In this document: positions 2,889 to 56,830 of the stretch, one piece after another
Position numbering within the stretch: position 1 is the first letter of the stretch
Layout: every line of letters starts with the position of its first letter
Assembly: GCA_964535515.1 (NCBI GenBank)
Contig: CAZHTA010000005.1
Location: 13-64,012 of the forward strand
Reading direction: 5' to 3'
Source of the DNA: an uncultured Gammaproteobacteria bacterium
Lineage (GTDB): Bacteria; Patescibacteriota; Patescibacteriia; Magasanikbacterales; GWA2-37-8
DNA: 64,000 nucleotides
Notes under the pieces: generated by a model
What the model was told of the DNA's origin: nothing
Database searches by the model: none
The model's input: only the letters and a program-made list of their open reading frames with translations
Position numbers and translations under genes: made by a program

Positions 2889-2960
2889 GAGCTGTTCTAC
2901 CCGTGGGGATGGGTGGACATCACGCGACTGGAGTATATCCAGCGCTAGCAAGGAGGAGGC

Positions 2961-3896
2961 ATGAAACTCAGAGAGATTCTGGTGGTCGAAGGGCTTACCA
3001 GGAACATGGGCGAACTTCTCTCGTCGGTGGTCGAGGCCGTGTCGGCTATCGGCTACCTCGAGGGCATGCGGCTGGTCATCGAAGAGTACAAGCCGGCTGC
3101 TGCCAAGCGCCAGCCGCTGGATGGCGTAAACGTGTCGGAAGAGTCGGTCAGGGCCTTTCGCGCCTTTTCGGGTGCTATGACCGCGCTTGCCGAGGGATGC
3201 CACATTCCCGTGGTGCAGGCCCTGTACCTGCACGATGCGGCGAGTGGACTCAGCCGGGGCAACGGCAACCTGCCCGACCAGCAGGTTGAGCTGAATCGGC
3301 ACGCTCTGCTCGTTCTCGGTGGTGTCTCTAGCGTTCTGCGTGGGGACGACTGGTGGTGCGTCTACGAGAAAGTGATGGTCGGCCTCATGGAGGCCGGGCA
3401 CGTCGCTTTCAATGAAGACGTCTTCCGGTCGATCATCGAGTCCATGAAGAAGAACCACGCCAAGGATGCGGCTGGTCGCCAGGCTCATCTGGCCGAGCGG
3501 CTCGCCGAGCAGGATCGCCTAGACGAGGCGATCGAAGTGCTCGCGTCGGTGGAGGGCGACACGTACTCCGCTCCGAACCAGCGTGGGTATGCGCTCGGGC
3601 TCCTGGAGAGGTACAGAGCCGTCGCCGTTACTCGGCGTGGTACGGGCACCTCGCGTGAGCGTCGCGCTCCGTCTCGTCGCAAGAAGGGCAGCGGTGCGAC
3701 CAAGGAAGGCGATCCCGAGCCACCACCAATAATCCGTCATCGCGCTTGGTACGGCACGATTGGCGGTACGTTCATTAGTACTAGGAGGGATAACGTCGTG
3801 GTCCCCACCCACGACTTACTCCAAAAGAGCATCAAATTATTGGTGCTTTTTTGTTTGTTTTTTTTATTTAAAAATGGTATATTATTCCTACTATGA
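2961..3896 (+). CDS. hypothetical protein encoded in GC-rich foreign-like cassette; 3' end appears truncated and reads through into AT-rich backbone/terminator
   Basis: High GC3 codon bias in this frame, canonical SD+ATG; C-terminal 25 aa (LLQKSIKLLVLFCLFFLFKNGILFLL) are translated from AT-rich terminator/promoter sequence. Confidence 0.5.
   Translation: MKLREILVVEGLTRNMGELLSSVVEAVSAIGYLEGMRLVIEEYKPAAAKRQPLDGVNVSEESVRAFRAFSGAMTALAEGCHIPVVQALYLHDAASGLSRGNGNLPDQQVELNRHALLVLGGVSSVLRGDDWWCVYEKVMVGLMEAGHVAFNEDVFRSIIESMKKNHAKDAAGRQAHLAERLAEQDRLDEAIEVLASVEGDTYSAPNQRGYALGLLERYRAVAVTRRGTGTSRERRAPSRRKKGSGATKEGDPEPPPIIRHRAWYGTIGGTFISTRRDNVVVPTHDLLQKSIKLLVLFCLFFLFKNGILFLL
3826..3852 (+). terminator. Rho-independent terminator downstream of GC-rich cassette
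   Basis: agagcatcaa-attat-tggtgct hairpin (one G-U) followed by T-run. Confidence 0.6.
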
Positions 3897-9533: not shown

Positions 9534-9865
9534 TACTAAAAAGTAAATTAAAAAAACAAAAAATCCCTTTGGTTAAGGAATTGTATGATGAATGGGCACC
9601 AGGAGGAGAAGTGGTGCCAGTGTTCGGACCGCGTCCGATTAATGAGCTAGGCCGGTTTTTCGCCCGCGCGCTAGACACTCAAACACTGACACCACGACTC
9701 CTCTGGTGGTGAGAGAAGAGACTGTGTGTGTAGAAGGGCTTTCCTTCAGGGGGATAACGTATGCGACCGTCATCCACTACTACACGCAGATCTTCCTTCT
9801 CTCAAGCGGGAGCATCTCGACGCGGTTTGGGCATGGGCCGTCTGCGCGTAGGAAGATCTCCCGAG

Positions 9866-9913
9866 TCTGGGAACATGGGGATTTGAACCCCATGAATTCG
9901 TCGATGTTCCCAG
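9866..9913 (-). ncRNA. tRNA-like minihelix (8-bp acceptor stem + 12-nt linker + T-arm GGGGUUCAAAUCCCC, no D or anticodon arm)
   Basis: Minus strand CUGGGAAC-AUCGACGAAUUC-AUGGGGUUCAAAUCCCCAU-GUUCCCAG-A folds as acceptor/T-arm coaxial stack. Confidence 0.3.
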
Positions 9914-9925
9914 GAAAGAATAAGG

Positions 9926-9999
9926 AGCGGGAGACTGGAATTGAACCAGTGGCCTCCACCCTAGCAGGATGGCACTCTGTTTCTCTGAGCTACTCCCGC
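9926..9999 (-). tRNA. atypical tRNA-like gene (anticodon GCU, short variable arm, D-loop lacking GG) - possibly pseudo-tRNA or non-canonical tRNA
   Basis: Manual fold: acceptor GCGGGAG/CUCCCGC, anticodon stem CCAUC/GGUGG loop CUGCUAG, T-arm ACUGG-UUCAAUU-CCAGU; D-loop AGAGAAACA unusual. Confidence 0.45.
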
Positions 10000-17725: not shown

Positions 17726-18957
17726 AGATTACTTTTTTCTATTTTTACTTTAAGTATTTTGTTATGTAGATCTTTGTCTGATTTAACTGCAATTTTTAAA
17801 TATTCTGGCGTGTATCCTTCGTAAGAACCGTTTTTACTTTTGTTTTCAAACAACACTGATTTGGTTTGGTTGATGAATTGCTTGGTAAATTGTTTGGCAA
17901 CATTGTTAGCAATGAAAATTAATTCTTTGACACGTTGTTTTTTTGTTTTATCTATCACAGTTTCTTTCATACTCGCGGCTAATGTCCCGGGTCGTGAAGA
18001 AAAAGGGAATACATGCACTTTAGAAAATTGTATTTCTTTAACAAATTGTTTGGTTTGGGCAAAGTCTTTTTCGGTTTCACCAGGAAATCCAATAATGATA
18101 TCCGTGGTAAAAGAAAAAAATGGATAACGGGCGCGCATTTTCTTTGCAATTTCAGCATAATGCTTGGTTGTATATCCACGACGCATGTTTTTTAATACTG
18201 TGTCTGATCCAGATTGGAGAGATAGATGCCAATGGGGCATGAGACGAGTGTTTGGGTAAAGCTTGATTAGTTCCGGTGTGATTAAACGTGGGTCAAGTGA
18301 ACCAAGACGGATTCGTTTGATTTTAGTTTCTTTTAGTATTTTTTTAAGCAACCCAGATAGAGAAGTTCTTTTATCTTTGTATAGACAGATATTCACTCCT
18401 GTTAAAGTAACTTCTTGGTATTTCTTTTTTTCTAGCTCTTTTATTTTTGTAATAATATTTTTAACAGAAACGCTTTGTGTTTTTCCGCGAAAGTGGGGGA
18501 TGATGCAATAGGCACAAGAGAAATTGCAGCCAGTTTGAATTTTAAGAAAAGCACGAGTACGATTGAGTTGAGTGGGTTCTTTTTTGTTTGTGTTGGTTGG
18601 TTCAGATTCAGCTAGGTTCATTACTTGTTCAATGGCAAGTTCGTTGGTTGGAGCAACAAAATCAATTTCTGGTAAATCAGAGTTTTCTACACATCCTAAT
18701 ACGATTACAGTCTTTCCTAATTTTTTGGCCCGGCGGATTATTTCTCTGGTAGTTTGGGAGGCGTTACAAGTAACACCGCAGGCGCGGATAATTGCTACTT
18801 TTTCGGTAGTTAAAAAAGGTACAGTAGTCTGCCCTAATTTTTCTAGATTTTCTTTTAAATCCTCGGTTTCTGCCCAATTTAATTTGCAACCCAAGGTAAA
18901 GTAGGAAATGTTCATAAAATACGTGTGGATTATATCAAAAGGATATTTTTTGAGCAA
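17707..18957 (-). CDS. radical SAM methylthiotransferase, MiaB/RimO/MtaB family
   Basis: MTTase N-domain, CxxxCxxC radical SAM motif (CAYCIIPHFRG), TRAM-like C-terminus; true start likely internal Met (MNISYFTLGC). Confidence 0.75.
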   Translation of the reverse strand: MLKKYPFDIIHTYFMNISYFTLGCKLNWAETEDLKENLEKLGQTTVPFLTTEKVAIIRACGVTCNASQTTREIIRRAKKLGKTVIVLGCVENSDLPEIDFVAPTNELAIEQVMNLAESEPTNTNKKEPTQLNRTRAFLKIQTGCNFSCAYCIIPHFRGKTQSVSVKNIITKIKELEKKKYQEVTLTGVNICLYKDKRTSLSGLLKKILKETKIKRIRLGSLDPRLITPELIKLYPNTRLMPHWHLSLQSGSDTVLKNMRRGYTTKHYAEIAKKMRARYPFFSFTTDIIIGFPGETEKDFAQTKQFVKEIQFSKVHVFPFSSRPGTLAASMKETVIDKTKKQRVKELIFIANNVAKQFTKQFINQTKSVLFENKSKNGSYEGYTPEYLKIAVKSDKDLHNKILKVKIEKSNLKTNPD

Positions 18958-19013
18958 GTAACTTAGTTAAAAGAAAACCCACTCATATTACTATAAGTGG
19001 GTTTATATTTTTT

Positions 19014-19069
19014 AAAACCACCTCCCTTAAGCGACAATGTCTTATCATTTAAGGGAGTCGGGTGGTTTT
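19014..19069 (-). terminator. hairpin terminator downstream of GC-rich cassette 2
   Basis: aaaaccacctcccttaa ... ttaagggag-tcg-ggtggtttt imperfect inverted repeat followed (minus strand) by A/T run. Confidence 0.45.
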
Positions 19070-19156
19070 GAGAATCACGCCCGACATAAGGCAGGTGTGA
19101 TTGTTGGGAAAGGGCAATGGCCTTGGGTTGGGTAGGGCGGAGTAGCCGTCGTGGGT

Positions 19157-19582
19157 CTAGTCGTCCAGCGTGCCCGGTCTGTCGAGCGGAGCGTAGAGAC
19201 CCAGTATGGAGCACTTGAAATCGGGGTCGTCGGGCGGGTTTTGCCCGAAAGCGCTGCGCATCTCGCGCTCTGGGCTCTGGCCGAATGCTCCGGGCCAGTA
19301 CTCGGCCGGAACGCTCAGAGCGCCTTCACGGAAGAAAAGGCGCACGTGACCTTTCATGTCTTCGGATAGGTTGTCCCACGCCGCCTGGTCCGTATCCGCG
19401 AGGGCGGATTCTTCCAGGAGGTGCTCGAGCAGAACCGGAGGCGTCTGCTTTTGCCTTTCTGCCCACTCACGCGCTCGTGCCTTGCTAAAGAACGGGGTGG
19501 TGTAGATATGGTCGCCGTTGAAGAAGCGTCCGTGAGTCGGCAGCACTCCGCATTTGCAGAGTCTGAACGTAATGTCTGCCAT
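19157..19582 (-). CDS. hypothetical protein in GC-rich foreign-like cassette 2
   Basis: 141 aa, strong GC3 bias in this frame, AAGGAGG RBS 6 nt upstream of ATG, no recognisable domain. Confidence 0.5.
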   Translation of the reverse strand: MADITFRLCKCGVLPTHGRFFNGDHIYTTPFFSKARAREWAERQKQTPPVLLEHLLEESALADTDQAAWDNLSEDMKGHVRLFFREGALSVPAEYWPGAFGQSPEREMRSAFGQNPPDDPDFKCSILGLYAPLDRPGTLDD

Positions 19583-19750
19583 CGGTTCCTCCTTACTTAC
19601 CCAGTTGGTTGTCGCCTGTTATAGAGCCTAACACAGGGTGGTATTTTGTTCAAGATGCTTAGTGTTTATGTCTTGTTTTGCGATTTGTAGTTTTTTAATA
19701 TAGGGAGTACAATATATGACAATTAATTATTGCTGTTATTTTAAATAACA

Positions 19751-22700
19751 GTGTTTATTCTTAACCATCGCTCTATGCGTCTCACACGTCTTTTGCGAGC
19801 AGCCCTACTTGGAGTTGGGGTAGCACTTTTTGTGTTACTTTTAGCACCATCAGCAAAGGCTGCTTCAGTGACAGAATTAACTCTGGCACAAGTTCAGTCA
19901 GAAAGTTTGACAATTTTAACTTTTGAAGACAGCAAGATTGATCTGTTGTCAGGTTATTGGGATACAAAAGGAGTAAAGTTTTTTTCTAACAAGGGAAAAG
20001 CAATTTATGTTAGTAGTTATAACCGAGGCGGTGAGGCGACTGCATCAGGAGAGTATGCAATTGCTAATTATGCTGCTTATCCTAGTACCAGCGCTAATGA
20101 TCCGTTATTTATCGAATTTAAAAATCCAGCTAAATCAGTTGGTTTTTATTATGGTAATGGTAGTGGTTCTGAAACGGCGACAATCAGAGTGTATGGTAAA
20201 AACAATGTCTATCTTGGCTCTTTAACCAAAAGTAATGTCACTGATCCAGTAACCAATTTTGTTGGTTTAACTGCCAGTGAGTCAATTACGTATATTTCTT
20301 TAGATTACGGCAATACGTTACTAAGTGAGTCAATTGATAGTCTGGTTTTCTCAGCCGCTCCTTTGCAAGAGAAAACTTGTTCAGAAACTGATGGTGGCAA
20401 TAGTAAGTATTTAAAGGGTAAAAATACTATTTACAACACTGATGGCAGTATTTTCACTTCCTCAGAAGATTATTGTAAAGATTCACAGACGGTTACAGAA
20501 ATTACCTGTAATGGTGGTCAATGGGATATAACGTACGAGACTTGTGATGGTAAATGTCAGGATGGACAATGTGTAAAAGCTAATCCGACCTGCTCTGATA
20601 CTGATAATGGTTTGTTTTACAATGTGTTTGGTAAGACAACTGGCTCGGATGAGGTAACTAAAGTAAATAGCTCATATTCTGATTCTTGTGGTGGATATAT
20701 CGGTGAACAAGGAAAAGATAAAGGTGACTATCTTGCGGAAAAACATTGTAGTGGATCAACGGATGCCCCATATGTGCATACACAGTGGTATAAATGTCCA
20801 AACGGATGCCAGTCGGGTGTTTGTTTAGCAACTCCAGCTGTAACAGCACAAAAGACCTGTTCTGAGACTGACAATGGCAACAACAAGAACTTAAAGGGTA
20901 AAAATACTATTTACAACACCGACGGTAGTGTCCTTACTACTGCCGAAGATTATTGTAGAGACGGACGCACTGTTACAGAAATTACCTGTAATGGTGGTCA
21001 ATGGGATGTAACATACGAGACTTGTGCTGGCAATTGTCAGGAAGGGCAGTGTGTAGTTACTACTGAAGCAAGTAAGCCTGATCTTGGTATGTATGGATTC
21101 CTCACCATCGGTAAAGATCGTCGTGAAGTTAAATGGGGTGAAACCATTACTTTAACACCAGCAGATACAGTTTATGGTACAAAATCCGCCTGGTTTGATG
21201 TATCTTACACTCAAAAGAACTATGGTCTTGCTGCCGCTTATCGATATTACAATTATTTAACTTTTGACGGTAGTCTTTTGGCTTCCAAGTATACTGGTCA
21301 GCTATATATTGACAGTAAGTCTGAAATTAAAGGAAGAGTATTATTCCCATCAAAAGTTGGTGTACATACTTTAAAGATTAAGATTGATAACAATAACGTG
21401 GTTAATGAAGTAAGGGAAGATAATAATGATTTTGAAGTTACGGTTAAATTAGAAGGGTTTGATACACCAAATTACAATTTAAATGCTAAGCCGGTAATTT
21501 ATCAACCAGAATCTAATCAGACTTTAACCAACTATCCACGTCAGGCATTCTTGAGTTGGTCTAGTGTGAAGGATGCTAATAATTACAACATTGAAGTTGC
21601 TTGTGATGTCTGCAATTTCCCAGAATGGACATCAGTACAAAAGACTCAGTCGGCAACTAACTATTCTACTACTCCTCCTTTAGCGGGTGATAATCGTTTC
21701 CGCGCTCGTGTTCAGGGGGTTTACCCAGATGGTAGTACTGGCGCTTGGTCAGAATGGAGATATTTTAAATATGATACTTCCAAATATTCTGACAATGGAC
21801 CGCGTTGTAGTGATGTTAAGGGCGGCAATGTGACCTTCTTGGTTTGTGAAGATTTTGCTGTGGATCATTTTTGGAGTGGATCCAAGATTTACTTGAATAG
21901 TTTTGATAACAATGGTGCTAGTGTAACTTTAAAGAATCTTAGTGGTACTAGTGCTTATTTGGAAAAGGGTAAAATGTACACTTACAATGTCACTAACAAA
22001 CCAGGTAAATATGTTGAAGTAACATATCTTGGTACTGGATCTTGGGGTAGGGCAGTGGTTAAAGTTAATTCCAATACCACCTATGAAAACTCTAATGATT
22101 ACCTATCTCAATCCAAGTGTGTAAATAGTTGGGGTAGTGATGGGTTGTATAGTTTGTGTGTAGGAAAGACTTTGTACCATAACGATGGCTGGACGATTAC
22201 CAATGTACAACAAAACAGTCAATATGTTTGGTTGAAAGTAAAATGGGCAAATAAAACTACCAAACAAATCAAAGTTAAGCTTAACACTATTAAAGAGATA
22301 GACAAACCAGGCGTAGATGAGTCCGTTGAGTTCAGCTATGTTAAATACCAGTCTAAATCTAAAGCTTTAATTAAAGTTAGTACTAACTTTGCTGAATCAG
22401 ATATTGTAGTTGATGAAACCATCCCAAACGAAACGGGTGTTGTCAGTGGTAACATCTATGTTGATTTCGGAGTGGGAGTAAATGACTATCCTGATCACAA
22501 GGATAATAGTAAGACTAAAAATTTAACCTACGGCTACGTAAATATGTACACTGTGGCTGTGGAGGATGGTAAATTTAAAGTTAAAGGTGTAAATCGTAGT
22601 CAGGTTAGCAGTAGTAATAATAACGGAGCGATGTTTAGTGTTACTCCTGGCCAGATAGTTGATTTTGCTGGTTTTAAAACATTGAGTGGTGCAATTAATG

Positions 22701-23420: not shown

Positions 23421-23432
23421 TTAGAGTAAACA

Positions 23433-23502
23433 AAAAAATTGTCCAATCTCCTTGATTTAATTCCAAATTATTTTAGAAGTAAATCATGGTGGACAATTTT
23501 TT
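23433..23502. repeat. palindromic element A: 13-bp terminal inverted repeats AAAAAATTGTCCA/TGGACAATTTTTT flanking 44-nt core containing CTCCTTGATTTAATTC
   Basis: Perfect 13-bp inverted repeat; homologous in architecture and core motif to element at 24074-24144. Confidence 0.6.
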
Positions 23503-23601
23503 GTATTCCTCCTATCATCCCTCCCGTTTTCCCGGGAGGATCAGGTGTGTGTTCGGGTGTGGGGTGGATTGCGACAGAATCGTCGCTCTTGGGGGGGGTA
23601 G

Positions 23602-23970
23602 CTAAGGCTTGGCGGCGTTGACCTCGGCGTTGACCTCCTGCATCCACTGCCCGATGACGGTGAGGGTGACGCCGGTCGAGGTGAGCTTGTTGATCACCAC
23701 CGACATTCCGAAGAGCACGATCGTTTCGGGAGCGAAGCCCTCAGCGTCGCCGTTGGCCCGGGAGTGGTCGAGAACCTCCCGGTAGGTGCCCTTGAAGAGG
23801 TCCTCTTCCGACTGGGACGGCACCCGCAGGTTGCCCACCTCCGTGGGCAAGATGTTGCCGCACTTCGTGCACATGACGACGTATCCGTTTCCGGATTCGC
23901 CGCGCATGACCTTGTGCAGGTGGTTGCACACGCACTCTGGACACCACGCGCTACGCATGAAGAGATACAT
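23602..23970 (-). CDS. zinc-ribbon protein in GC-rich foreign-like cassette 3
   Basis: 122 aa, N-terminal CPEC...CTKC zinc-ribbon, high GC3, promoter-like TTGACA with flanking direct repeats upstream. Confidence 0.5.
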   Translation of the reverse strand: MYLFMRSAWCPECVCNHLHKVMRGESGNGYVVMCTKCGNILPTEVGNLRVPSQSEEDLFKGTYREVLDHSRANGDAEGFAPETIVLFGMSVVINKLTSTGVTLTVIGQWMQEVNAEVNAAKP

Positions 23971-24015
23971 GGTGGGGCATCCCCCGATTTGTTGGTCCGT
24001 AATTTTTTAATCACT

Positions 24016-24042
24016 ATTACAGGAGATTGTCAATATTACAGG
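24016..24042. promoter_or_regulatory. direct repeats TATTACAGG x2 bracketing a minus-strand TTGACA -35 hexamer (candidate operator of zinc-ribbon gene)
   Basis: tattacagg agattgtcaa tattacagg on plus strand; reverse complement gives cctgtaata-TTGACA-atctcctgtaata. Confidence 0.4.
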
Positions 24043-24073
24043 TAATTTTTAAATAAATAATTATTAAAACAAA

Positions 24074-24144
24074 AAACAGTCCATAAACCTCCTTGATTAA
24101 TTCTCAACTTTTATATTAAGAATTAATGTTGGGATGGACTGTTT
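24074..24144. repeat. palindromic element B: 11-bp terminal inverted repeats AAACAGTCCAT/ATGGACTGTTT with nested inner hairpin and CCTCCTTGATTAATTC core
   Basis: Same architecture and core motif as element A; inner inverted repeat ATTAATTCT/AGAATTAAT. Confidence 0.6.
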
Positions 24145-24527
24145 GATGTTCGCGCCGATCCGTGCCTGGGAGTCCGTGCTCCCAGGACTTATTCAATGCT
24201 GCCTATTCGGCAACAACTGGGGGTGGAAGATGGGCGATCTCGTCCATCATATCCAGGTAGATGTGAAGAAGCAGTGACTTCTCCGGCGGACGGGGGCTTT
24301 CGATGCCTCGAATCTTGTCCAAGAACTCCAACTTCGTCATCCTTGTTTCCGACGCGGTTGTTTAATTAAATAGTACACCTTTAAGAGTCGATTGACAATA
24401 ATAAAGTTCGAACCCCTCCCGCCCTCAACCAAAATCACCCACACCGCTTGGAATTGGCAAACTTATTTCGGCTCTAATATCAGCAGAAAACAAAAGAACC
24501 TCGAACATGATTCGAGATTCCATCTTG

Positions 24528-28975: not shown

Positions 28976-29132
28976 AAACCGTCTTCGTCAAAAGACAAAA
29001 ATCTTCTGACGGAGCGGGCGGTCTTGCGACAGCCTCAACTCCGTTGGGGGAGTTGTGACTTTGGAAAGAACAACCGGGTAGGAGGGGGGGGTGGACTGGG
29101 AGGCAACTCTATTTGACCGCTACGGCCTCGAT

Positions 29133-29483
29133 CTAGACGATCAGCGTGGTGCCGACGGAGCGGGGGTCGCGGATTTTCCGCACCCTACCTTCCTTGCTGG
29201 TGGCGACGAAGGTGTACGGGCTGGTCCAGGTCCAGACGACCTGGAAGAGGCTCCCTGTCGGCGCCTGTTGGGCGAAGCACATGATGCCGCTGTCCTTACC
29301 GTCGGTCCTGGGGACCAACAGGTCGCCGTCGCGAACGAGCCGGATGTAGGTCTTGAGCTGCGGTCCCGACTCCGGCGAGCTGGGCTTCCGGCTCGTGCGG
29401 AAGAAGGTCACGTCGGGCGGCAGCTTGAACAGGGCGCCCTTTTGGAACGGGAACGACGAGGTCGGGGTCGGTTGGTCGGACAT
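29133..29483 (-). CDS. hypothetical protein in GC-rich foreign-like cassette 4
   Basis: 116 aa, high GC3, GGAGGA RBS 5 nt upstream of ATG, minus-strand TTGACA-17-TAATAT promoter at about 29548-29576. Confidence 0.5.
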   Translation of the reverse strand: MSDQPTPTSSFPFQKGALFKLPPDVTFFRTSRKPSSPESGPQLKTYIRLVRDGDLLVPRTDGKDSGIMCFAQQAPTGSLFQVVWTWTSPYTFVATSKEGRVRKIRDPRSVGTTLIV

Positions 29484-29524
29484 GGTAATCCTCCAGAGAT
29501 GCTTGCTCTCACACCAACTGCGGT

Positions 29525-29806
29525 ATGAGTGTTGGTGAGGATATTAATGCTTTTTTTACAATTTGTCAATATTTCCCATTGCGGTTAATGTATTTTTTTG
29601 ATAAAATATTAATGCTTATGAAGACAAAAATAAATCAGAAGCAACAAGAAGAACTACAAAAACTAGAGAAGTGGTTTGATTTGGAGTTAATAAAATTAAA
29701 GAAAAAGCGAATCGAGATTTTAAAGCGTTATGATAAAAAAAGGTCATTGTTGTTTCAGAATAAAATATTAAAACATATTAGTGGTATAAAGACAGAAACA
29801 TATTAA
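29525..29806 (+). CDS. small Lys/Glu-rich coiled-coil protein (true start probably internal Met near 29614)
   Basis: ORF track 93 aa; first third overlaps minus-strand promoter of cassette 4, so a downstream start is more plausible. Confidence 0.4.
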   Translation: MSVGEDINAFFTICQYFPLRLMYFFDKILMLMKTKINQKQQEELQKLEKWFDLELIKLKKKRIEILKRYDKKRSLLFQNKILKHISGIKTETY

Positions 29807-39404: not shown

Positions 39405-41336
39405 ATGCGTTTTAGATTATTATCATTTTTAGGCTTGTTGTTTGTTTTTGGTGGGTTGGTATTTGTTGGGCCAGTTAAGGTGGTTGAAAATCGTAGTTAT
39501 TTTTATGATGGTATAGATGTTGAAGCGGTGGTGAATCAAGATACTACGGTAGATATTAGAGAAAGGCAATCGTACGTTTTTGTAGGCGAATATCATAAGG
39601 GATGGAGAAGTATTCCTTTGCGTAAAATTGATGCGATTACCAATATTCAGGTTTTAGATGGTGTGACCAATCAACCGTTGACGTATTCTTGGCGTACTTT
39701 AGAAAAAACTGATCCAGCAAGTTGGGGTAAATATACCTACCGTCGTAACGGTGGTAATGTGGAGATTGAATGGTATTACAATGCCAAAGACGAACAAAAG
39801 ACCTGGATAATTGAATACAAAGCGCATGGTGCATTAGAGTTTTTAAAAGATAATGATAGGTTCTATTGGAATTTATTTACTGATTATGAAGTACCAGTAG
39901 AAGCGGCGAGTGTTAAAGTATATTTACCAGAAAATGCTAATTTGTCAGTCGCGGGTTGGGAAATATATCCATCAGGGGGCGTGGCGGCAGTTTCTTCATT
40001 TGACAGTAGTCAGGGTTATTTTTATGCTTCTGGCGAAAATTTTCCTCCTCAGGGCATGTTGACAGTGAATCTTTTCTGGCCAAAGGGAGCGGTAAACCGT
40101 TCAGCATATTGGTCAGATTTTTGGAAATTAAAGTATGGTTATATTATCTCAATATTTTTATTAATATTAACTTTTTCAATTGCTATTATCCGCTGGTTAA
40201 TGGTTGAACGTTTAGTTAAAGGGCGAGGTACAATTGTGCCGCAGTATGAACCACCAAAAGGAATGTCTCCGGCGGAAATGCAAGTAGTGTTAAAAGAGAG
40301 TGTGAATAGTCGAGCGCTGGCAGCGACGATTATAGACTTGGCAGTGAGGGGCTATGTAAAAATTGAAGAAGAGCCACCAACTGCTTGGCATAAAATGTTG
40401 GCGAAAGCAACGGTTGGTCTGTTTGCTGCTATTTTTATCTTACTTTTTATTGGTATTTGGTATTTTGGATCAGGAAATTCTATTAGTTTGTTTTTTGTTG
40501 CAGTAGCAGCGCTTATTTGTTTTATCATATTGCAGAAGTTTAAAACCGGACGTTACGGGCGTGATTATCGAATTGTTAAAACTGAAAAGGATAATAGTGG
40601 TTTAAAGGATTATGAGAAGAAATATTTGGATGCACTTTTTTGGTATGGAAGTGAATATTTTTCTACTCGCGAAATGCGTTCGTCTTCTAGTTCTTCTCGA
40701 GCGGCGGCGATGCAAAAAAATATTTTAGAATTGCGAGAAGATATTTACAAATCAGTTGACCCGGATAACAAGTTTTATGAAGTCTCACCGTTAAAAGAAA
40801 AAATCAAATGGGGTGTTTGGATTTTGTCTGGGATTATTATTGTTATTTGTTTGTCTGCGGGAGGAAGTTGGTTTTTTAGTTTAGCACAATATTGGTACAT
40901 TGTTTTTTCTTTAGTAATATTTGGTTCTTGTTTATTTGTATATTTTAAATACGAAGCTCGTTTAAGTCAGGCGGGTAGAGAGCTTAAAGAAGAGATCTTA
41001 GGCTTTAAAATGTATTTGTATTCTGCCGAACGGTATCGTTTGCAAAATCTTACGCCCGATATTTTCGAGAAGTATTTACCATACGCAATGGTGTTTAAGA
41101 TCGAAAAACAGTGGGCAAAGACTTTTGTTTCGAGAGACGTTAGCCAGCCTTCTTGGTATTATACTGGGTATTATGGTTCGGATTCCTCGGTACCGTCAGT
41201 AGCCACATTTTCGGCTACTGCCTTTAGCGCTAGTTTTGTTTCATCTTTTCCCGCCTCCTTTTCAGGTTGGTCGGGGGGGGGGTGGGGGGGGTTTTGGGGG
41301 GGGGGGGGGGGGGGTGGGGGAGGCGGTGCAAGTTAG
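39405..41336 (+). CDS. DUF2207-like membrane protein with Gly-rich C-terminus
   Basis: Signal/TM, extracytoplasmic beta-rich N-domain, several TMs, C-terminal GGGWGGFWGGGGGG tail as seen in DUF2207 family; poly-G DNA tract 41270-41330. Confidence 0.6.
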   Translation: MRFRLLSFLGLLFVFGGLVFVGPVKVVENRSYFYDGIDVEAVVNQDTTVDIRERQSYVFVGEYHKGWRSIPLRKIDAITNIQVLDGVTNQPLTYSWRTLEKTDPASWGKYTYRRNGGNVEIEWYYNAKDEQKTWIIEYKAHGALEFLKDNDRFYWNLFTDYEVPVEAASVKVYLPENANLSVAGWEIYPSGGVAAVSSFDSSQGYFYASGENFPPQGMLTVNLFWPKGAVNRSAYWSDFWKLKYGYIISIFLLILTFSIAIIRWLMVERLVKGRGTIVPQYEPPKGMSPAEMQVVLKESVNSRALAATIIDLAVRGYVKIEEEPPTAWHKMLAKATVGLFAAIFILLFIGIWYFGSGNSISLFFVAVAALICFIILQKFKTGRYGRDYRIVKTEKDNSGLKDYEKKYLDALFWYGSEYFSTREMRSSSSSSRAAAMQKNILELREDIYKSVDPDNKFYEVSPLKEKIKWGVWILSGIIIVICLSAGGSWFFSLAQYWYIVFSLVIFGSCLFVYFKYEARLSQAGRELKEEILGFKMYLYSAERYRLQNLTPDIFEKYLPYAMVFKIEKQWAKTFVSRDVSQPSWYYTGYYGSDSSVPSVATFSATAFSASFVSSFPASFSGWSGGGWGGFWGGGGGGGGGGAS

Positions 41337-41582: not shown

Positions 41583-41602
41583 ATTTGCACGCTCGTGCAA
41601 AT
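41583..41602. promoter_or_regulatory. 9-bp perfect inverted repeat ATTTGCACG-ct-CGTGCAAAT adjacent to TTGAC hexamers upstream of pepT (candidate operator)
   Basis: Palindrome seen directly; overlaps putative promoter ttgaccgatatttgaca. Confidence 0.45.
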
Positions 41603-41689
41603 GTTGACCGATATTTGACAATTCATTACGGAAACGGAAGAGGGAGTTAGTGCTAGTGCTGGAGCGAAAACTGTTTGGGGGAGGAATAG

Positions 41690-42943
41690 ATGTTGATTCC
41701 ACGCGAACGCATGCTCGAAAGGTTCATGCGCTACGTGCGCATGGACACCCAGTCGGTTGAGGGAGCGGAGTGCTACCCCTCGACCGAGAAGCAGAAGACC
41801 TTGCTGCGGCTGTTGGTCGACGAACTGAAGGCGCTGGGCCTCGCCGATGCGGCCATGGACGAGTGGGGCTACGTCTTCGCGACGTTGCCGTCGAACTTGC
41901 CGGCCGACCAGGCCGCCAAGTTGCCGGCCATCGGTTTCTTGGCGCACGTCGACACGTCGCCGGAAACGAGCGGCACGGACGTGAAGCCGGTGATCTGGAG
42001 GCACTACGATGCGGGCACCAACCTCGTGTTGCCCGGCGACCATTCCCAGGTGATCACCTGGGACGGTAACCCCGTGCTGCAGCGATACGTCGGGCAGGAC
42101 ATCATCACCAGCGACGGCACCACCCTGCTGAGCGCGGATGATAAGGCGGGCATCGCCGAAATCATGACCGCCATCGAGGTGCTGTTGGCGAATCCTGACA
42201 TCCCGCGCCCCACCATCCGTGTGGCGTTCACGCCCGACGAAGAGGTCGGTATGGGTACTGCCCATTTCGATCTCGCGAAGTTCGGCGTGCAGGCCGCCTA
42301 TACCCTCGACGGCGGCGAAATCGGTGAGGTTGAATGCGAGACATTCAACGCTTACCTCGCGACCTTCACGGTCGTCGGCAACAACTGCCACCCCGGCTAC
42401 GCCAAGGGGAAGATGGTCAACGCCATTCGTCCCATGGCAGCTATCGTCGAGGCCTTGTCCGACCAGCCTGCACCCGAGACCACCGAGGGTCGCCAGGCTT
42501 ACCTGCACCCGTACGATCTCAAGGGTGAAGTTGCCAAGGCTACGCTCAAGGTGCTCATCCGCAGCTTCGATGAAGCAGGTATCGAGTCGCGCAAGATGTT
42601 CCTCGCGGGCGTGCGCGATCGCGTAGCGGCGGCGTTCCCTCAGGCGAACATCGTTCTCGAGATGGTCGAGCAGTACAAGAACATGAAGGTCTACGTGGAT
42701 CAGGATCCGCGTGTCATGGCCTTCGCCACGGAAGCCATCATCAAGGCTGGTCTCCAGCCGATCACACGCGAGATCCGCGGCGGTACGGATGGCTCGAAGT
42801 TGTCCGAGAAAGGACTGCCTTGCCCCAACCTGTTCGCGGGTGGGCACAACTTCCACTCGAAGTTGGAGTTCATCCCGGTGCAGTCTATGGAGAAGGCCGT
42901 GGAGGTCGTGGTCTACCTGGTCGAGCGCTGGGCCAACGCCTGA
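41690..42943 (+). CDS. pepT: peptidase T (tripeptide aminopeptidase, M20B family) in GC-rich foreign-like cassette 5
   Basis: Strong collinear similarity to E. coli PepT recalled from memory (HVDTSP, GADDKAGIAEIM, AFTPDEEVG, IRGGTDG, GLPCPNLF, GGHNFH); high GC3; GGGGGAGG RBS. Confidence 0.8.
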   Translation: MLIPRERMLERFMRYVRMDTQSVEGAECYPSTEKQKTLLRLLVDELKALGLADAAMDEWGYVFATLPSNLPADQAAKLPAIGFLAHVDTSPETSGTDVKPVIWRHYDAGTNLVLPGDHSQVITWDGNPVLQRYVGQDIITSDGTTLLSADDKAGIAEIMTAIEVLLANPDIPRPTIRVAFTPDEEVGMGTAHFDLAKFGVQAAYTLDGGEIGEVECETFNAYLATFTVVGNNCHPGYAKGKMVNAIRPMAAIVEALSDQPAPETTEGRQAYLHPYDLKGEVAKATLKVLIRSFDEAGIESRKMFLAGVRDRVAAAFPQANIVLEMVEQYKNMKVYVDQDPRVMAFATEAIIKAGLQPITREIRGGTDGSKLSEKGLPCPNLFAGGHNFHSKLEFIPVQSMEKAVEVVVYLVERWANA

Positions 42944-43198
42944 TCATCCCGTCTCAGCCGTTTCTGGCTAAACACTTACCACATTGGAGGGAAATGGTGT
43001 GGCACAGTGCGATTCATTCGCCAAGCTATTCCCCTCTAAATGAAGATTTTGATTTAAGTCTTTATTTAGAGGATAGTTTGGAAATATTAATAAGACCATT
43101 TGTATAAATTACGAGTGGTTTTTTATTTATACACATCCTTTGGTTTGGTAGGTTTTCTACTTCTCCTTTTTTGTGATATAATTTAAATACTATCGCTT

Positions 43199-45144: not shown

Positions 45145-45331
45145 TAGCTTAACCAAGCTGTTATTTTTTTATACCTGAATGGGATATTGTGATTATTACA
45201 GTCTCTGTTTAAACAAAAAATCACTTTATAATAAGTGGTTTGATGTTTGTTTAAATGAATCTGTGTGGAACCGGCGCGCCTATCCACACAGAGGCGGAAG
45301 AAGTGCGCCGGGTCCTAGGCCTTGTACGTCG

Positions 45332-45586
45332 TCACGCGGTCTTCTGCTCGGGGTAGTACCCCGTGTCGAACATCGCGTCGATGATGTCCGCCGGCACCAC
45401 GTCCTCCATGCGGATGAACGGTCCCGGCGGTGGGAGGTAGATTCCTCGCTTCCTCTCGAATCCAACAGCCAGGAGGAGGCTGCGGAATTCGTCGCATGCG
45501 GGCACGGGCACCGCCATGTCGTTGACATCGACTGCGATTGCGCCGATAGGATCGTTCGGTTCGAAGAGGTTCGTGGCGTCGTCCAT
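45332..45586 (-). CDS. hypothetical small acidic protein in GC-rich foreign-like cassette 6
   Basis: 84 aa from MDDATNLFEP; high GC3; TGGAGG RBS 6 nt upstream; hairpin ctgtgtgga...ccacacag just after stop. Confidence 0.45.
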   Translation of the reverse strand: MDDATNLFEPNDPIGAIAVDVNDMAVPVPACDEFRSLLLAVGFERKRGIYLPPPGPFIRMEDVVPADIIDAMFDTGYYPEQKTA

Positions 45587-45735
45587 GACACCCTCCAAAA
45601 AAGTTACTAATAGTAGACTGTCATATTTTATCAACAAAGTCAATATTTAGTCTAATAATTTTATTGTTTTCCATGGTGTGGAATGGTGTAAGTAAGGTTG
45701 CTTTAAACCTTGTTTTTTGTTAAAATATTAATACT

Positions 45736-49663: not shown

Positions 49664-50107
49664 TTATTGTAAATTAGCTACAAAGTAAGGGGTCAAATAT
49701 TGTTTTTTGTCAGGGCTATGTTTAAGATTAAATATTTGAGTACCATCTTTGCCGCAATTGCGTATTATTTTTTCTGGACCACCTGGGTGTTGTGGAATGT
49801 ATGATGTGACATTGTATATTTTTCCGTCAATTACCATCCAGCAATCATTAGCGTTATTATGTTTGCTTACTTCAGCCAAGTTGTACACCACAGTATTTTG
49901 TTTTGGTGCTGCGGTAGGTGTTGGTGCAACGATGGTTGGAGGAGGAGTGTTCGATGGCGCAACATTTTGTGTAGTAGTTGTGCTTTCTGTTGGAACAACT
50001 ACTTTGGTGGGTGTTTGAGCTATTTGTTGAGTTGTTGTGCCGCAGCCACTTAAGAATATGGTTGTAAATGCAATTAAGGTAAGTATTTTAAAATGAGAAT
50101 TTTTCAT
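49664..50107 (-). CDS. cytochrome b5-like heme-binding domain lipoprotein
   Basis: Lipobox LSGCG, Thr/Pro-rich linker, C-terminal b5 motif HPGG; 147 aa. Confidence 0.7.
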   Translation of the reverse strand: MKNSHFKILTLIAFTTIFLSGCGTTTQQIAQTPTKVVVPTESTTTTQNVAPSNTPPPTIVAPTPTAAPKQNTVVYNLAEVSKHNNANDCWMVIDGKIYNVTSYIPQHPGGPEKIIRNCGKDGTQIFNLKHSPDKKQYLTPYFVANLQ

Positions 50108-51422
50108 AATATATATTTGATTTATTAATTCCTAGACTAATTAATTGTTTTTTTAGAGACATCATCATTCCTGATGGCCCGCAGATGTATGCTTCGCGCG
50201 AACCAATATCAGGTACGAGGCAAGAAATACAGACTTCATTTATTAATTTGAATTTACTGTCGCTTTCTTCTTCGCTGGTGATATAGTGTACTTTTAAATT
50301 GTTGGAATATTTTTTTGCTAAGTCTTCCAGCTCTTGTTTGAAGATAATCTGGTTGGTTCTGCGAGCGCTATATAATAGTACCAAATTTTTATTGTTTTTT
50401 GCAAGTTGTTCAATTAAAGCGCGTATTGGTGTTATCCCCACACCGCCAGCAATCAGGAGGATTTTGTCTTTTTGTTTTTCTTTTTCGGTAAATATTCCAT
50501 TAGGTCCGTCGATTATTACTTTTGTTCCTATTGAGATGTCTTTTAATGTCGCACTGGAGTCGCCGAGATTTTTAACCGTTATTCTTAGATATTCTTTTCC
50601 TGGTATATCAGAAAAAGAATAAGGGTGGGATTCTGGCCAGATTTTTTTGTTTAGGAAGCGGAAGATGCCAAATTGTCCAGCCTTGTAAGAGAATTCGTTT
50701 ATTTTGTTTCCTTTAATATATATTGATGTTGTATCGATAGTTTCGGTAACTATTTTATCGACATAAAATTGATGTTTTTTGAAGAGGTAAATTTGCCAAA
50801 AGAATCGATAGAAAACAAAGTTAATACCAGTGAACACATAGAGTAAAATCCAATAGGCAGCAAAAAGGTGGTTAGTGTTTAAATCAAAGCCAGATTCTAG
50901 TTGATGGCTGTAAGCTAATAAAATTGCTAAGTATGAAATCAGGTGAACATAATACCAGTTCTCATATTTCATTCTTTTCTTTACCAAAGTGATTGACCCG
51001 ATGATTGTTATAATAAACAATATCAAAGAAATTGTAGCAGGTAAGAGCTCTTCCCAGTTAGTAAGGAAATCCCAAAATTGTCCAATCCAGCTTAATTCAT
51101 ATATCTGGGCATAGCCAGCAAGGAGTAGTAGGAAATGCAAAACGATTAGTAAAAAAGCTCCTATGCCTAGCCAGTGGTGGGCTAAAGATAGCCTATCAAG
51201 CCCAAATATTTTTTCAATCCACTTTACTCGGCCAATTACTAATAGTTGGACTAAGATAAAATATACAGCCAACAAACCGGCGATTCTACCAAAAACAATT
51301 AAGACGGTCGATGGGCTAGGACTGTTTAATAATGATTTTCCCGAGATTGCCCACCAGAAAGAAACAATAATTAGCAAGTTTACTGAAAACAAAATATAGA
51401 GTAATGATTTTTTCATAGCCAT
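50088..51422 (-). CDS. ferric-reductase-like transmembrane oxidoreductase with FAD/NAD(P)-binding domain
   Basis: Six-TM ferric reductase domain with paired His, HPYSF FAD motif, GGVGITP NAD motif; 444 aa. Confidence 0.7.
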   Translation of the reverse strand: MAMKKSLLYILFSVNLLIIVSFWWAISGKSLLNSPSPSTVLIVFGRIAGLLAVYFILVQLLVIGRVKWIEKIFGLDRLSLAHHWLGIGAFLLIVLHFLLLLAGYAQIYELSWIGQFWDFLTNWEELLPATISLILFIITIIGSITLVKKRMKYENWYYVHLISYLAILLAYSHQLESGFDLNTNHLFAAYWILLYVFTGINFVFYRFFWQIYLFKKHQFYVDKIVTETIDTTSIYIKGNKINEFSYKAGQFGIFRFLNKKIWPESHPYSFSDIPGKEYLRITVKNLGDSSATLKDISIGTKVIIDGPNGIFTEKEKQKDKILLIAGGVGITPIRALIEQLAKNNKNLVLLYSARRTNQIIFKQELEDLAKKYSNNLKVHYITSEEESDSKFKLINEVCISCLVPDIGSREAYICGPSGMMMSLKKQLISLGINKSNIYYEKFSF

Positions 51423-51425
51423 TTT

Positions 51426-51875
51426 CTAGAAGCCGCGTTCGTTTTTAATTTTCTTTAAAATATTGAGCGGGCTTTCTTTGCAGAAGTTTCCAATGTAGGT
51501 TTTAACTAAGTTTTTCTTTAGAACAGCGGGTAGGGCTTTTTCTAGTTCTTTAATAATGGTATCTGGTGCGAACAAATAAACAAGATCAATTTTTTGTTCA
51601 GTTGATAATCTTTTTGTTTCTTCTTTAAAACTTTTAACAAAGTCTCGTCGTGCTGCCTTTTTTATTTTTTCAGTTATGGCACCGGTTTCAAAAGCCACTG
51701 AACCACGACGAGAAGAGTCTTCGCGATCAGAAAATTTAGTTTTTTCTAATTTAAAATGGAAGACGCCGCTGATCATGCTGTTTTGGGCAAGGAAGAAGTC
51801 GGCTTCTTCTGTGCCAGTTACCAAAATTAATCCAGTTTTGTTTTTGAACTGTATTAGCGTAGATGGTATTTTCAT
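51426..51875 (-). CDS. hypothetical protein, first gene of ferric-reductase operon
   Basis: 149 aa; 3-nt gap to next gene. Confidence 0.45.
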   Translation of the reverse strand: MKIPSTLIQFKNKTGLILVTGTEEADFFLAQNSMISGVFHFKLEKTKFSDREDSSRRGSVAFETGAITEKIKKAARRDFVKSFKEETKRLSTEQKIDLVYLFAPDTIIKELEKALPAVLKKNLVKTYIGNFCKESPLNILKKIKNERGF

Positions 51876-51985
51876 ATTTAATTAAATATTAAATTATGTT
51901 TTAGGTTGTGTTTTTTGGTCAAAACACATATAATTAGTATACCAGAATTGATTTAAATTAGCTACTGGTTTTTAAAGATGATTTT

Positions 51986-52483
51986 ATGCGTACTGCCAAT
52001 CGAAAACCCGGGAAATTTAGCATTCTTAAGCCAGACCCAGTTTTAACTAAAGAAAAGTTTGGGGAGCTAGAAAGTAAATTAGAAAAATTGAAAAAGGCTA
52101 AACCAGGGGCAGCGGTTGAAGTCGCCCGTTTAGCTGAATTGGGTGATTTTTCGGAAAATGTTGAATATCAGATGGCTAAAGGTAAACTACGAGGAATTAA
52201 CAATGCTATTTTAAATTTAGAAAACCAACTGCACGAAGCGGTGGTGGTTAAAGAACATAAACCGTCTGGGGTTGTACAAATTGGTAGTACTGTGACCGTC
52301 GCTCGGGGCGGGGAAGAAAAAGTATATAAAATCTTAGGATCAGTTGAATCTGACCCTAATAAAGGGGTGATTTCTTACAATTCTCCGATCGGTGAGGCTT
52401 TAATGGGATGTGAGGCAGGGGAGAAAGTACTAGTAAAATTAGCAGATCGAGAAGTTGAGTATATGGTGGTAAAGATAGAGTAA
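51986..52483 (+). CDS. greA: transcription elongation factor GreA
   Basis: N-terminal coiled-coil with acidic tip region, C-terminal FKBP-like domain; 165 aa. Confidence 0.8.
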   Translation: MRTANRKPGKFSILKPDPVLTKEKFGELESKLEKLKKAKPGAAVEVARLAELGDFSENVEYQMAKGKLRGINNAILNLENQLHEAVVVKEHKPSGVVQIGSTVTVARGGEEKVYKILGSVESDPNKGVISYNSPIGEALMGCEAGEKVLVKLADREVEYMVVKIE

Positions 52484-52505
52484 TTCTTGTCTTTGTTATC
52501 ACGCA

Positions 52506-52534
52506 TTGACTTTTTATTGTTTTTGTGGTATACT
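52506..52534 (+). promoter_or_regulatory. sigma70-like promoter TTGACT-17-TATACT with long 5' UTR for cspA
   Basis: ttgact(52506-11) 17 nt tatact(52529-34); about 85-nt leader. Confidence 0.55.
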
Positions 52535-52620
52535 AATTCTACAAAAATATCCTTGGAAACCTCGTCGACTTTCTTCAACGGATATATAAAATTTTGTAAT
52601 TATTTATTAGTTTTTCTCGT

Positions 52621-52821
52621 ATGAAAGGTACTATCAAAAGTATTATTGCTGAGAAGCATTTCGGCTTCATCACACCAGAAGATGGCTCAAAGGACGTTTT
52701 CTTCCACGAAAGCGGTCTTACAGAAGTTCAATTCTCTGAATTGAAATCTGGCGATGTTGTCAGCTTCGATGTAGAGCAATCTGAAAAGGGTCCTCGCGCT
52801 ATCAACGTTGTTCGCGCTTAA
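52621..52821 (+). CDS. cspA: cold-shock protein (CspA family)
   Basis: RNP1 KGFGFI-like (HFGFITPEDG) and RNP2 VFFHES motifs; 66 aa. Confidence 0.9.
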   Translation: MKGTIKSIIAEKHFGFITPEDGSKDVFFHESGLTEVQFSELKSGDVVSFDVEQSEKGPRAINVVRA

Positions 52822-52839
52822 GTCTTTTTCGAAAGCATT

Positions 52840-52879
52840 AACACCAGGCACTATTTTAGTGCCTGGTGTTTTGTTTTTT
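52840..52879 (+). terminator. Rho-independent terminator after cspA
   Basis: aacaccaggcac-tatttta-gtgcctggtgtt + ttgtttttt. Confidence 0.75.
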
Positions 52880-52966
52880 ATTGACAAAAGGCTAAAAATA
52901 TGAGATTATGTCGTTGTAGCGAACCTTTTTAAAGGCTCGCTATTCATATCAATTAAAGAAATAAGT

Positions 52967-54418: not shown

Positions 54419-54498
54419 AAGCAGCCTGGCTATTGATTTTTATTAAGATTTGTGCTAAACTAATGGAAATTACATTTTAAGTAATTCAAATATATCGT

Positions 54499-55155
54499 AT
54501 GGGTAATTATAATCGAGACAACGGAAGATCTAGTGGCGGCGGTGGACGCGGTGGTTTTGGTGGTCCAAGTAGATCATTTGGCGGTGGTGGACGGTCATTT
54601 GGCGGTGGTGGTAGATCGTTCGGTGGTGGTAGAGATGGTGGTAAGCCAGCTATGCACAAAGCTACTTGTAGTGAATGTGGTTCTAGTTGTGAGCTTCCTT
54701 TCAAGCCTACCGGCGACAGACCTGTTTTTTGCAGCACATGTTTTGGTAAGCAGCAAGACGGTGGTGGCAGCGCTAGACCATCTAGTTTTGGTGGTGAAAG
54801 ACGCGAAAGACCTCGTTTTGAAGACAAACAAATGCATGATGCTACTTGTGGCAAATGTGGTAAAGAATGCCAAGTACCTTTTAGACCAATGGCTGGTAAA
54901 TCAGTTTTTTGTAATGATTGTTTTGAAAAGGGTGGAAGTAAAGATTCTGGTGAAGTCATGGAACAATTAAAAGCTTTACATGTTAAAGTTGACAAGTTGA
55001 TGGCTTTTTTAAATCCAAAGGCTCCAGTAGAAAAAGCTGAGAAGGTAGAGGTGAAAAAAGAAGTAGCTGTTAAAAAAGAGGTTGTAAAGGAAAAGAAAGA
55101 AAAAGTAAAAGCAAAAGCTGCTCCAAAAAAAGTAGCAGCTAAGAAGAAGAAATAA
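54499..55155 (+). CDS. Gly/Arg-rich protein with two CxxC-x16-17-CxxC zinc-ribbon repeats and Lys-rich C-terminus
   Basis: GGGRSFGGGG repeats; CSECGSSC...FCSTCF and CGKCGKEC...FCNDCF; KKEVAVKKEVVKEKKEK tail; 218 aa. Confidence 0.55.
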   Translation: MGNYNRDNGRSSGGGGRGGFGGPSRSFGGGGRSFGGGGRSFGGGRDGGKPAMHKATCSECGSSCELPFKPTGDRPVFCSTCFGKQQDGGGSARPSSFGGERRERPRFEDKQMHDATCGKCGKECQVPFRPMAGKSVFCNDCFEKGGSKDSGEVMEQLKALHVKVDKLMAFLNPKAPVEKAEKVEVKKEVAVKKEVVKEKKEKVKAKAAPKKVAAKKKK

Positions 55156-55170
55156 AAAACAAAATTTTTT

Positions 55171-55245
55171 AAAACCCCGACTGTAAAAAGTTGGGGTTTT
55201 TGTTAAAAAAACACCCTCCACATAAGTGAGGGTGTTTGATTTTGT
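55171..55245 (+). terminator. two tandem terminator hairpins
   Basis: aaaacccc-gactgtaaaaagt-tggggtttt and acaccctc-cacataagt-gagggtgt + T-rich. Confidence 0.65.
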
Positions 55246-56810: not shown

Positions 56811-56830
56811 AAATTAAACAATATTAGTTA

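Follow-up and report, generated by a model that had tools for sequence, protein, structure and literature searches.

The locus and its signals

Within a 64,000-nucleotide stretch of contig CAZHTA010000005.1 (GenBank assembly GCA_964535515.1), which we refer to as the window and which has an overall GC content of 38%, a GC-rich patch at approximately 19001-19650 carries a single small gene whose nature and origin are the subject of this work. The gene is an open reading frame (ORF) of 141 codons on the minus strand (19582-19157, with the stop codon at 19159-19157), situated between mtaB, a gene of the MiaB family, and a divergent gene for a surface protein, and its product is an exact match to a protein that NCBI annotates on a contig of 64,764 bp. 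This arrangement and the protein sequence, as given in a preliminary description made from the DNA alone, were both reproduced here. The overall GC content of the ORF is 0.61, with values of 0.64/0.46/0.73 at the three codon positions, as against 0.42/0.34/0.29 in mtaB and 0.43/0.42/0.28 in the surface-protein gene. The high GC content at third codon positions (GC3) that had been reported for the ORF therefore holds, and the difference between 0.73 and the 0.28-0.29 of the neighbors gives the gene the host-atypical nucleotide composition and codon usage that count as a feature of membership in a genomic islet.

Upstream of the gene we recognized in the sequence a putative promoter (19625-19653, minus strand), consisting of TTGAAC at 19653-19648, a 17-nt spacer and an extended -10-like element TGT-TAGGCT at 19633-19625, with TATAAC at 19623-19618 as an alternative -10 element. 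The corresponding region in L001, a 1-kb Logan contig of run ERR14064755 that comes from a different sample and an independent assembly and carries an ortholog of the gene, has TTGATC-17-TGTTAGACT together with TATAAT (z=15.9 for the 5' region). The 5' leader (19583-19624, minus strand) shows nothing unusual in its folding (z=+1.3) and contains the Shine-Dalgarno sequence AAGGAGG (19594-19588), which is also found in L001. This sequence and the ATG at 19582-19580 had been described correctly, the one emendation being the spacer, AACCG, which is 5 nt in length rather than 6 nt.

The region 3' of the stop codon can form three successive stem-loops at 19102-19073, 19069-19014 and 19004-18975 (z=-7.2 for the fold of 18965-19160), all on the minus strand. 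The first of these (19073-19102; AAUCACACC…GGCGUGAUU) sits in a C-rich 3' untranslated region (UTR) with 0.34 C and 0.18 G. The second, larger stem-loop (19014-19069; -27 kcal/mol, z=-6.0, with 0/200 shuffles folding equally well) marks the 3' boundary of the foreign GC-rich DNA, with UUUU and then a run of A after it. It had been taken as the closing element of a complete transcription unit; as a stable hairpin it is real, but it departs from a canonical intrinsic terminator in having an internal bulge, a nested helix and no more than UUUU after it, and the terminator scanner makes no call on it. The canonical intrinsic terminator is instead the next, AT-rich hairpin (18966-19004), in which a 13-bp stem at 19004-18975 leads into UUUUCUUUU (-17.5 kcal/mol, z=-5.7), which is the sole one of the three to be called by the consensus scan.

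A protein-coding gene under selection

Taken by itself the length of the ORF is within chance, as the longest ORF reaches at least 141 codons in 6% of Markov simulations of the island composition (P=0.06), and the coding call hence rests on homologs, on the ratio of nonsynonymous to synonymous substitution rates (dN/dS) and on codon periodicity. In L001 the ortholog occupies the same locus, is transcribed away from its surface-protein neighbor in the same way and displays the same transition from AT-rich to GC-rich DNA. Over 78 alignable codons the two copies show dS=0.76 and dN=0.18 (dN/dS=0.23), with 16, 13 and 24 changes at the first, second and third codon positions, and the synonymous excess is significant (Fisher p=1.5e-5). 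The same comparison in the flanking surface-protein gene yielded dS=0.36, dN=0.024 and a dN/dS (ω) of 0.07, such that the cassette outpaces its flank at both synonymous (p=0.02) and nonsynonymous sites (p=7e-9). The approximate doubling of dS relative to the flank is consistent with an accessory gene undergoing amelioration.

An exhaustive phmmer search of 1.84 billion representatives recovered six clusters only (E=8e-39 to 3e-15), and a scan of metagenome contigs added one further member, L014. The family of the 141-aa protein is a tiny (about 7 clusters) and uncharacterized one, newly defined here. The chance-level ORF length and the heavily structured 3' region would be in keeping with the notion that the cassette is not a protein gene at all, and represents a GC-rich structured RNA, a chance ORF or an assembly chimera. 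We regard this as extremely improbable, given the low dN/dS with its excess of third-position changes, the protein-level homologs at very different nucleotide compositions and the confident structural model described below. Searches of Rfam at the gathering threshold found no match for an RNA family, and a permissive threshold gave only sub-threshold hairpin look-alikes. A mis-join, which had been raised as a possibility, is refuted by L001, in which the AT-rich to GC-rich 5' junction is spanned by an independent assembly. Thus, the 141-aa ORF is a real protein-coding gene that is under selection.

An accessory gene in a re-used slot

The window is chromosomal, as it encodes rmlB/rmlD, a T2SSE-family ATPase, the CCA-adding enzyme, MacAB-like transporters, dnaG, rpoD, murG and mtaB, as well as a Mur ligase, peptidyl prolyl isomerases, a tRNA synthetase, ftsEX, greA and seven tRNAs. 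The closest named relatives of its MtaB are from Patescibacteria, mainly Candidatus Magasanikbacteria (approximately 54-60% identity), and a search of the genome collection with MtaB found relatives at 29-31% identity only. To judge by these sequence affinities, the host is a low-GC member of the Patescibacteria (Candidate Phyla Radiation, CPR) near the Magasanikbacteria.

The mtaB promoter, leader and start lie at 18915-18957 on the minus strand (TTGCTC at 18957-18952, a 17-nt spacer and TATAAT at 18934-18929), and the true start, the ATG at 18915, gives a 402-aa product in agreement with the NCBI annotation. On the other side, the surface-protein gene, whose product contains a CARDB domain, has a promoter-like site and start at 19685-19777 on the plus strand (TTGTAG-17-TACAAT at 19685-19713, ATG at 19775), and this region is conserved in both L001 and L017, a relative of the locus retrieved by means of MtaB. 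Hence, the promoters of both neighbors appear intact, and the cassette would part their control regions without destroying them. The surface-protein gene (1033 aa) additionally contains an internal direct repeat of 204 nt (20372-20575 versus 20852-21055, 81% identity).

Two relatives retrieved via MtaB, L017 from sequencing run SRR22388334 and L018 from SRR27197509, illustrate the state of this slot elsewhere. L017, with an 82% identical MtaB, has the same divergent pair of genes, the surface protein beginning with MRLTRFLRAALFG…, separated by a 143-bp AT-rich spacer that lacks the cassette; this bears out the earlier suggestion that the cassette occupies the promoter region of its divergent neighbors. 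L018, with a 72% identical MtaB and a syntenic mtaB-murG pair, has a different GC-rich gene in the slot, in the same position and orientation. This cargo (200-790, GC 0.56-0.62) encodes a 155-aa protein with a PG_binding_1 domain and is bounded by a tRNA on one side and, on the other, by the orthologous terminator with the mtaB promoter. The terminator hairpin, mtaB promoter and leader (19012-18913 of the window) are conserved in L018 with a local alignment of z=8.6 (0/500 shuffles), which implies that the canonical terminator is host sequence and that only the GC-rich cargo differs between the two. A further feature of islet membership, presence or absence at a conserved locus, was thus found as well, with the site occupied in L001, empty in L017 and filled by other cargo in L018. 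The cassette is therefore accessory, and resides in a re-used slot upstream of mtaB. Orthology of the cassette promoter to the mtaB promoter of L017 (z=1.2) or to the cassette promoter of L018 (z=1.7) was also considered and proved statistically unsupported.

Other GC-rich islets of the window

The cassette is one of approximately 8 GC-rich patches (56-62% GC) that are dispersed over 43 kb of the window, the further ones being located at 2901-3850, 9601-9920, 23501-24000, 24151-24350, 29001-29550, 41601-43050 and 45251-45600. Most of these contain one high-GC3 ORF each, encoding proteins of 122 aa (with a CPxC…CxxC zinc ribbon), 45, 116, 103 and about 280 aa, and the 417-aa PepT; five of the seven further-islet ORFs are antisense to the prevailing gene direction, and each of the seven islets has a host-type promoter and terminator. 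There is no similarity among the islet proteins, nor between them and the companion ORFs in L004, L005 and L018, and the other islet proteins had no matches in plasmid records. In islets 1, 4, 5 and 6 (2860-2900, 23990-24030, 24345-24385 and 29540-29575) the GC-rich DNA starts a few nt past a host-type -10 element (TTGACA-17-TAnnnT) and stops just short of a host-type terminator, suggesting that the foreign segment in these four approximates the transcribed region. Moreover, the AT-rich long-loop hairpin/terminator modules of about 85 nt that follow islets 4 and 5 (23425-23520 and 24060-24155) are homologous copies with 77% column identity and CTCCTTGATTWAATTC in the loop, which suggests that the terminator was duplicated when the second cassette joined. 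Two candidate sequence signatures of the islets were rejected: a 'ATATTGACA' -35 motif as a boundary signal, which is ordinary host promoter architecture that also occurs, for example, before tRNA-Thr, and a 'CCACCC' or C-rich 3' UTR motif, which mirrors the window-wide GC skew. The patch at 9601-9920 (about 56% GC) adjoins tRNA-Ser (9924-9999), contains no convincing ORF and matches no family in Rfam; it may be an islet that has decayed, or else an uncharacterized RNA.

One of these islets carries pepT, which encodes an M20 tripeptidase (41690-42943, plus strand, GC3 0.83) and is inserted right after tRNA-Thr. Its closest relatives (68-78% identity; L015 4766-6016 and L016 10001-11254) are native genes of 71%-GC genomes, with a GC3 of 0.98 and a conserved synteny of the form M23 peptidase-HIT-…-PepT-HSP20-RibF. 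The PepT islet is a clear case of cross-phylum horizontal gene transfer from a lineage of about 71% GC into the Patescibacteria, and shows that this lineage demonstrably imports and ameliorates genes from high-GC bacteria. Just upstream of the same tRNA-Thr, at the 3' end of an ORF for a DUF2207 membrane protein (39405-41336), we observed a poly-G tract, GGGGGGGGGGTGGGGGGGGTTTTGGGGGGGGGGGGGGGGGGGTGGGGGAGG (41270-41332), which would encode a poly-Gly tail and may be slippage-prone or form a G-quadruplex.

The form of the islets bears on whether the cassette could belong to a site-specific mobile system, either as an integron-like cassette with 19014-19069 as its attC site or as the passenger of a transposon or miniature inverted-repeat transposable element. 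In favor of this, an imperfect hairpin comes after the lone ORF of every islet, L018 has other cargo in the slot upstream of mtaB, and islets 4 and 5 are followed by duplicate copies of a terminator module. Nevertheless, the RYYYAAC (R'') and GTTRRRY (R') cores of an attC site are absent on both strands in and around 18990-19110, and the pair occurs in no islet's 3' region; no integrase, transposase or recombinase domain was found in window ORFs of at least 150 aa; and the islets have promoters of their own and are scattered rather than arrayed, the repeat search having recovered no repeat family or terminal inverted repeats common to them. Hence, we consider a cassette of this kind highly improbable.

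A phage moron, in the concept of Hendrix and Juhala, is an additional gene of deviant composition that brings a promoter and a terminator of its own and is lodged between conserved genes. The cassette resembles one in being an independent promoter-ORF-terminator unit with a composition unlike that of its neighbors, and in that its gene is small, fast-evolving and without an assigned function; of the features of such a unit, deviant composition and a terminator are present, and the promoter is weak and surmised from its conservation in L001. An origin as a moron, or as what is left of a decayed prophage or an inserted plasmid, is still very unlikely, as there are no phage or plasmid genes nearby and no phage structural domain in window ORFs of at least 150 aa. 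The 141-aa protein likewise has no PHROG match, no relative in IMG/VR and no fold match in BFVD, and tblastn searches of 50,697 phage records and 72,556 plasmid records found nothing.

Probable origin and amelioration of the cassette

Of the copies of the family that could be compared with their surroundings most are GC-elevated: GC3 is 0.59 in L005 (flank GC 0.40), 0.69 and 0.66 in the first and second paralogs of L009 (flank GC 0.42 for both) and 0.75 in L014 (flank GC 0.48). Two copies, those in L004 (GC3 0.34, flank GC 0.39) and L010 (GC3 0.23, flank GC 0.29), are host-like in GC3 and keep the protein, from which it follows that the protein itself has no need for GC-rich codons. No synteny was seen between the genomic contexts of any two family members. 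The two paralogs of L009 (8001-8510 and 9699-10220) are 1.2 kb apart with NUDIX and ArfB-like genes between them, and in L005-L008 the family member is found within a 1.3-kb GC-elevated patch (L005 2294-3553) together with two small GC-rich ORFs, which encode a protein of 73 aa and a Gly/Asp/Cys-rich peptide of 44 aa.

These observations allow the alternative to be weighed in which the gene is native to the Patescibacteria and vertically inherited, with its GC content kept high by selection or biased repair, its absence from L017 a secondary deletion, and no high-GC donor involved. Family members are all in low- or mid-GC contigs and none is in a high-GC genome, and a deletion in L017 is made plausible by the finding that L018, although more distant, has an orthologous terminator and mtaB promoter, and that the closer L017 differs there. 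Against this stand the GC3 of the gene, which is far beyond host codon usage, the conservation of the protein in copies with a GC3 as low as 0.23 and 0.34, the extreme patchiness of a family of so few clusters that shares no common synteny, and the seven other GC-rich islets in the same 64 kb, one of them of demonstrable high-GC origin. Native inheritance is hence unlikely.

Overall, the cassette is likely to be a horizontally acquired single-gene islet that has been partly ameliorated, and this is the best explanation of the evidence taken together. Under such a scenario, about 630 bp of foreign GC-rich DNA (approximately 19014-19640), probably from a source of more than 60% GC that reached the host directly or via other Patescibacteria, would have become fixed in one lineage between the surface-protein gene and mtaB. 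The weak host-type promoter (19653-19625) would drive a monocistronic RNA of about 650 nt, predicted to run from near 19615-19620 to near 18966-18974, and translation would begin from the strong Shine-Dalgarno sequence of the gene; the two GC-rich 3' stem-loops may stabilize or pause the transcript, and transcription would end at the pre-existing host terminator (19004-18966), which would insulate the downstream mtaB promoter. The cassette would be undergoing amelioration under the AT-biased mutation of the host.

Several points weigh against this reading or parts of it. Every relative of the family that was found lies in a contig of 29-48% GC, so that the check proposed in the preliminary description, for closest relatives in high-GC taxa, came out negative, and no high-GC homolog was recovered from the 1.8 billion representatives, the species-representative genomes (which yielded no relative of any kind), the metagenome contigs or the phage, plasmid and IMG/VR collections. 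Together with the host-like GC3 of the copies in L004 and L010, this means that the transfer may have taken place from one member of the Patescibacteria to another rather than from a high-GC donor, for which direct support exists in the case of the PepT islet and not in that of the 141-aa gene. Further, L001 covers only the 5' junction and ends inside the gene, and the region upstream of mtaB in L017 aligns significantly with neither flank of the cassette, such that an insertion here and a deletion in L017 are indistinguishable. The cassette promoter appears to be weak, too much so to be called by the consensus promoter scanner, and was assigned from its sequence and its conservation in L001; finally, fold and sequence supply no functional lead for the protein.

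Beyond the single event, foreign GC-rich genes might be captured systematically in this lineage, in the form of transcript-shaped units; candidate mechanisms are an uptake of short fragments that is driven by competence and fills re-usable 'expression slots', and the RNA-mediated (retro-) integration of foreign mRNAs. The boundaries at -10 elements and terminators, the re-use of the slot upstream of mtaB and the duplicated terminators of islets 4 and 5 leave room for such a mechanism, and if it were to exist the 141-aa family, being GC-elevated in at least 5 low-GC hosts and having no high-GC home, would represent circulating cargo. The alternative to such a dedicated process is random illegitimate recombination filtered by selection, and we consider a systematic route quite unlikely.

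The protein and its candidate zinc site

The product of the cassette is a soluble, acidic protein of about 16 kDa (isoelectric point (pI) 5.0, grand average of hydropathy -0.53) of an uncharacterized family. The CxC pair pointed out in the preliminary description corresponds to C9 and C11, and the acidic C-terminus to …GTLDD; the statement that it contains no recognizable motif was upheld. Searches of Pfam, NCBIfam, PHROGs and PADLOC came back empty for this protein and for all 7 family members alike, and a family profile searched against PDB sequences had its best hit at E=0.22 (CueR), which is noise. The structure prediction that had been suggested as a check gave a confident AlphaFold2 model from the 7-sequence alignment (predicted local distance difference test (pLDDT) 86, predicted template modeling score (pTM) 0.78), and a longer family paralog was modeled with a matching topology (pLDDT 79, pTM 0.78). 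With both models Foldseek searches of PDB and BFVD recovered no fold match (best E of about 0.9-2.4, TM <0.3).

The predicted topology comprises an N-terminal β-hairpin with a CxC-x5-H motif, a helical core and an ordered C-terminal tail that contains C124. The only cysteines and histidines conserved in all full-length members are C9, C11, H17 and C124 (the other invariant motifs being R19, F32-S33, R38, AWDxLxExxK, WPG, NPPxxP and LYxxD…TL), and these four residues probably make up a structural Cys3His zinc site, by which the N-terminal hairpin would be anchored to the C-terminal tail. We tentatively suggest, while considering it rather doubtful, that the protein is a small zinc-stabilized accessory protein with a binding or regulatory role, rather than an enzyme or a mobility protein. 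A confident predicted fold without structural relatives, combined with the probable Cys3His site, makes the family a possible target for structural and functional studies.

Implications and other features of the window

What the locus records is probably an ordinary kind of event, the horizontal transfer of one gene, seen here with unusual clarity. It unites occupied, empty and alternatively occupied sites with purifying selection and visible amelioration, and the PepT islet alongside it provides a traceable high-GC donor lineage. CPR bacteria have tiny genomes and are dependent on other cells, and with genomes so small and dependent the genes that are imported and kept are informative on lifestyle. 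In this regard, the presence of approximately 8 GC-rich single-gene units in 64 kb suggests that cross-phylum capture is commoner here than is reported by surveys of horizontal transfer based on metagenome-assembled genomes.

Two further features of the window were recorded independently of the islets. Between 1 kb and about 56 kb the window has a strongly positive GC skew of 0.15-0.4, which drops to about 0 beyond that point, and gene orientation switches from mostly plus to mostly minus around 50-55 kb; a replication origin or terminus may lie in the region at approximately 50000-57000. The distal, AT-rich portion of the window contains a gene at 61131-62105 (minus strand) for a protein with RhuM-family and Fic/DOC domains, a possible toxin or AMPylase.

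Comparison with known systems

At the level of the protein, the N-terminal β-hairpin with its CxC…H motif and the distal Cys, all of them invariant, recall the structural-zinc pattern of small zinc-ribbon and zinc-knuckle proteins. The 141-aa protein differs from these in having no Pfam zinc-finger match and no structural neighbor, and from a classical contiguous zinc ribbon in that its fourth ligand is about 110 residues distant.

At the level of the locus, the cassette shares with phage morons the arrangement of a promoter, a Shine-Dalgarno sequence, a small ORF and a hairpin with a terminator between otherwise adjacent genes, as well as the deviant GC content, but it resides in a bacterial chromosome among dnaG, rpoD, murG, mtaB and a Mur ligase and displays no phage homology. 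Like integron gene cassettes it combines a single ORF with an imperfect inverted repeat in a slot whose cargo varies between strains, but there are no attC cores, no intI or attI in the window and no array, and the gene has its own promoter.

Close counterparts are the islets of groundwater Patescibacteria, which contain hundreds of singly transferred genes and small islands, mostly exchanged among Patescibacteria, with DNA uptake probably occurring via competence or pili by the inference of that study (PMC12455944, mSystems 2025). Like these islets, the cassette consists of one accessory gene whose composition is atypical of the streamlined CPR chromosome around it, with presence/absence variation among relatives and no mobility genes. 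It is distinguished from them by the extreme contrast in composition, with a GC3 of 0.73 versus 0.28, and by its setting in a chromosome in which about 8 islets occur in 64 kb, each as its own promoter-to-terminator unit.

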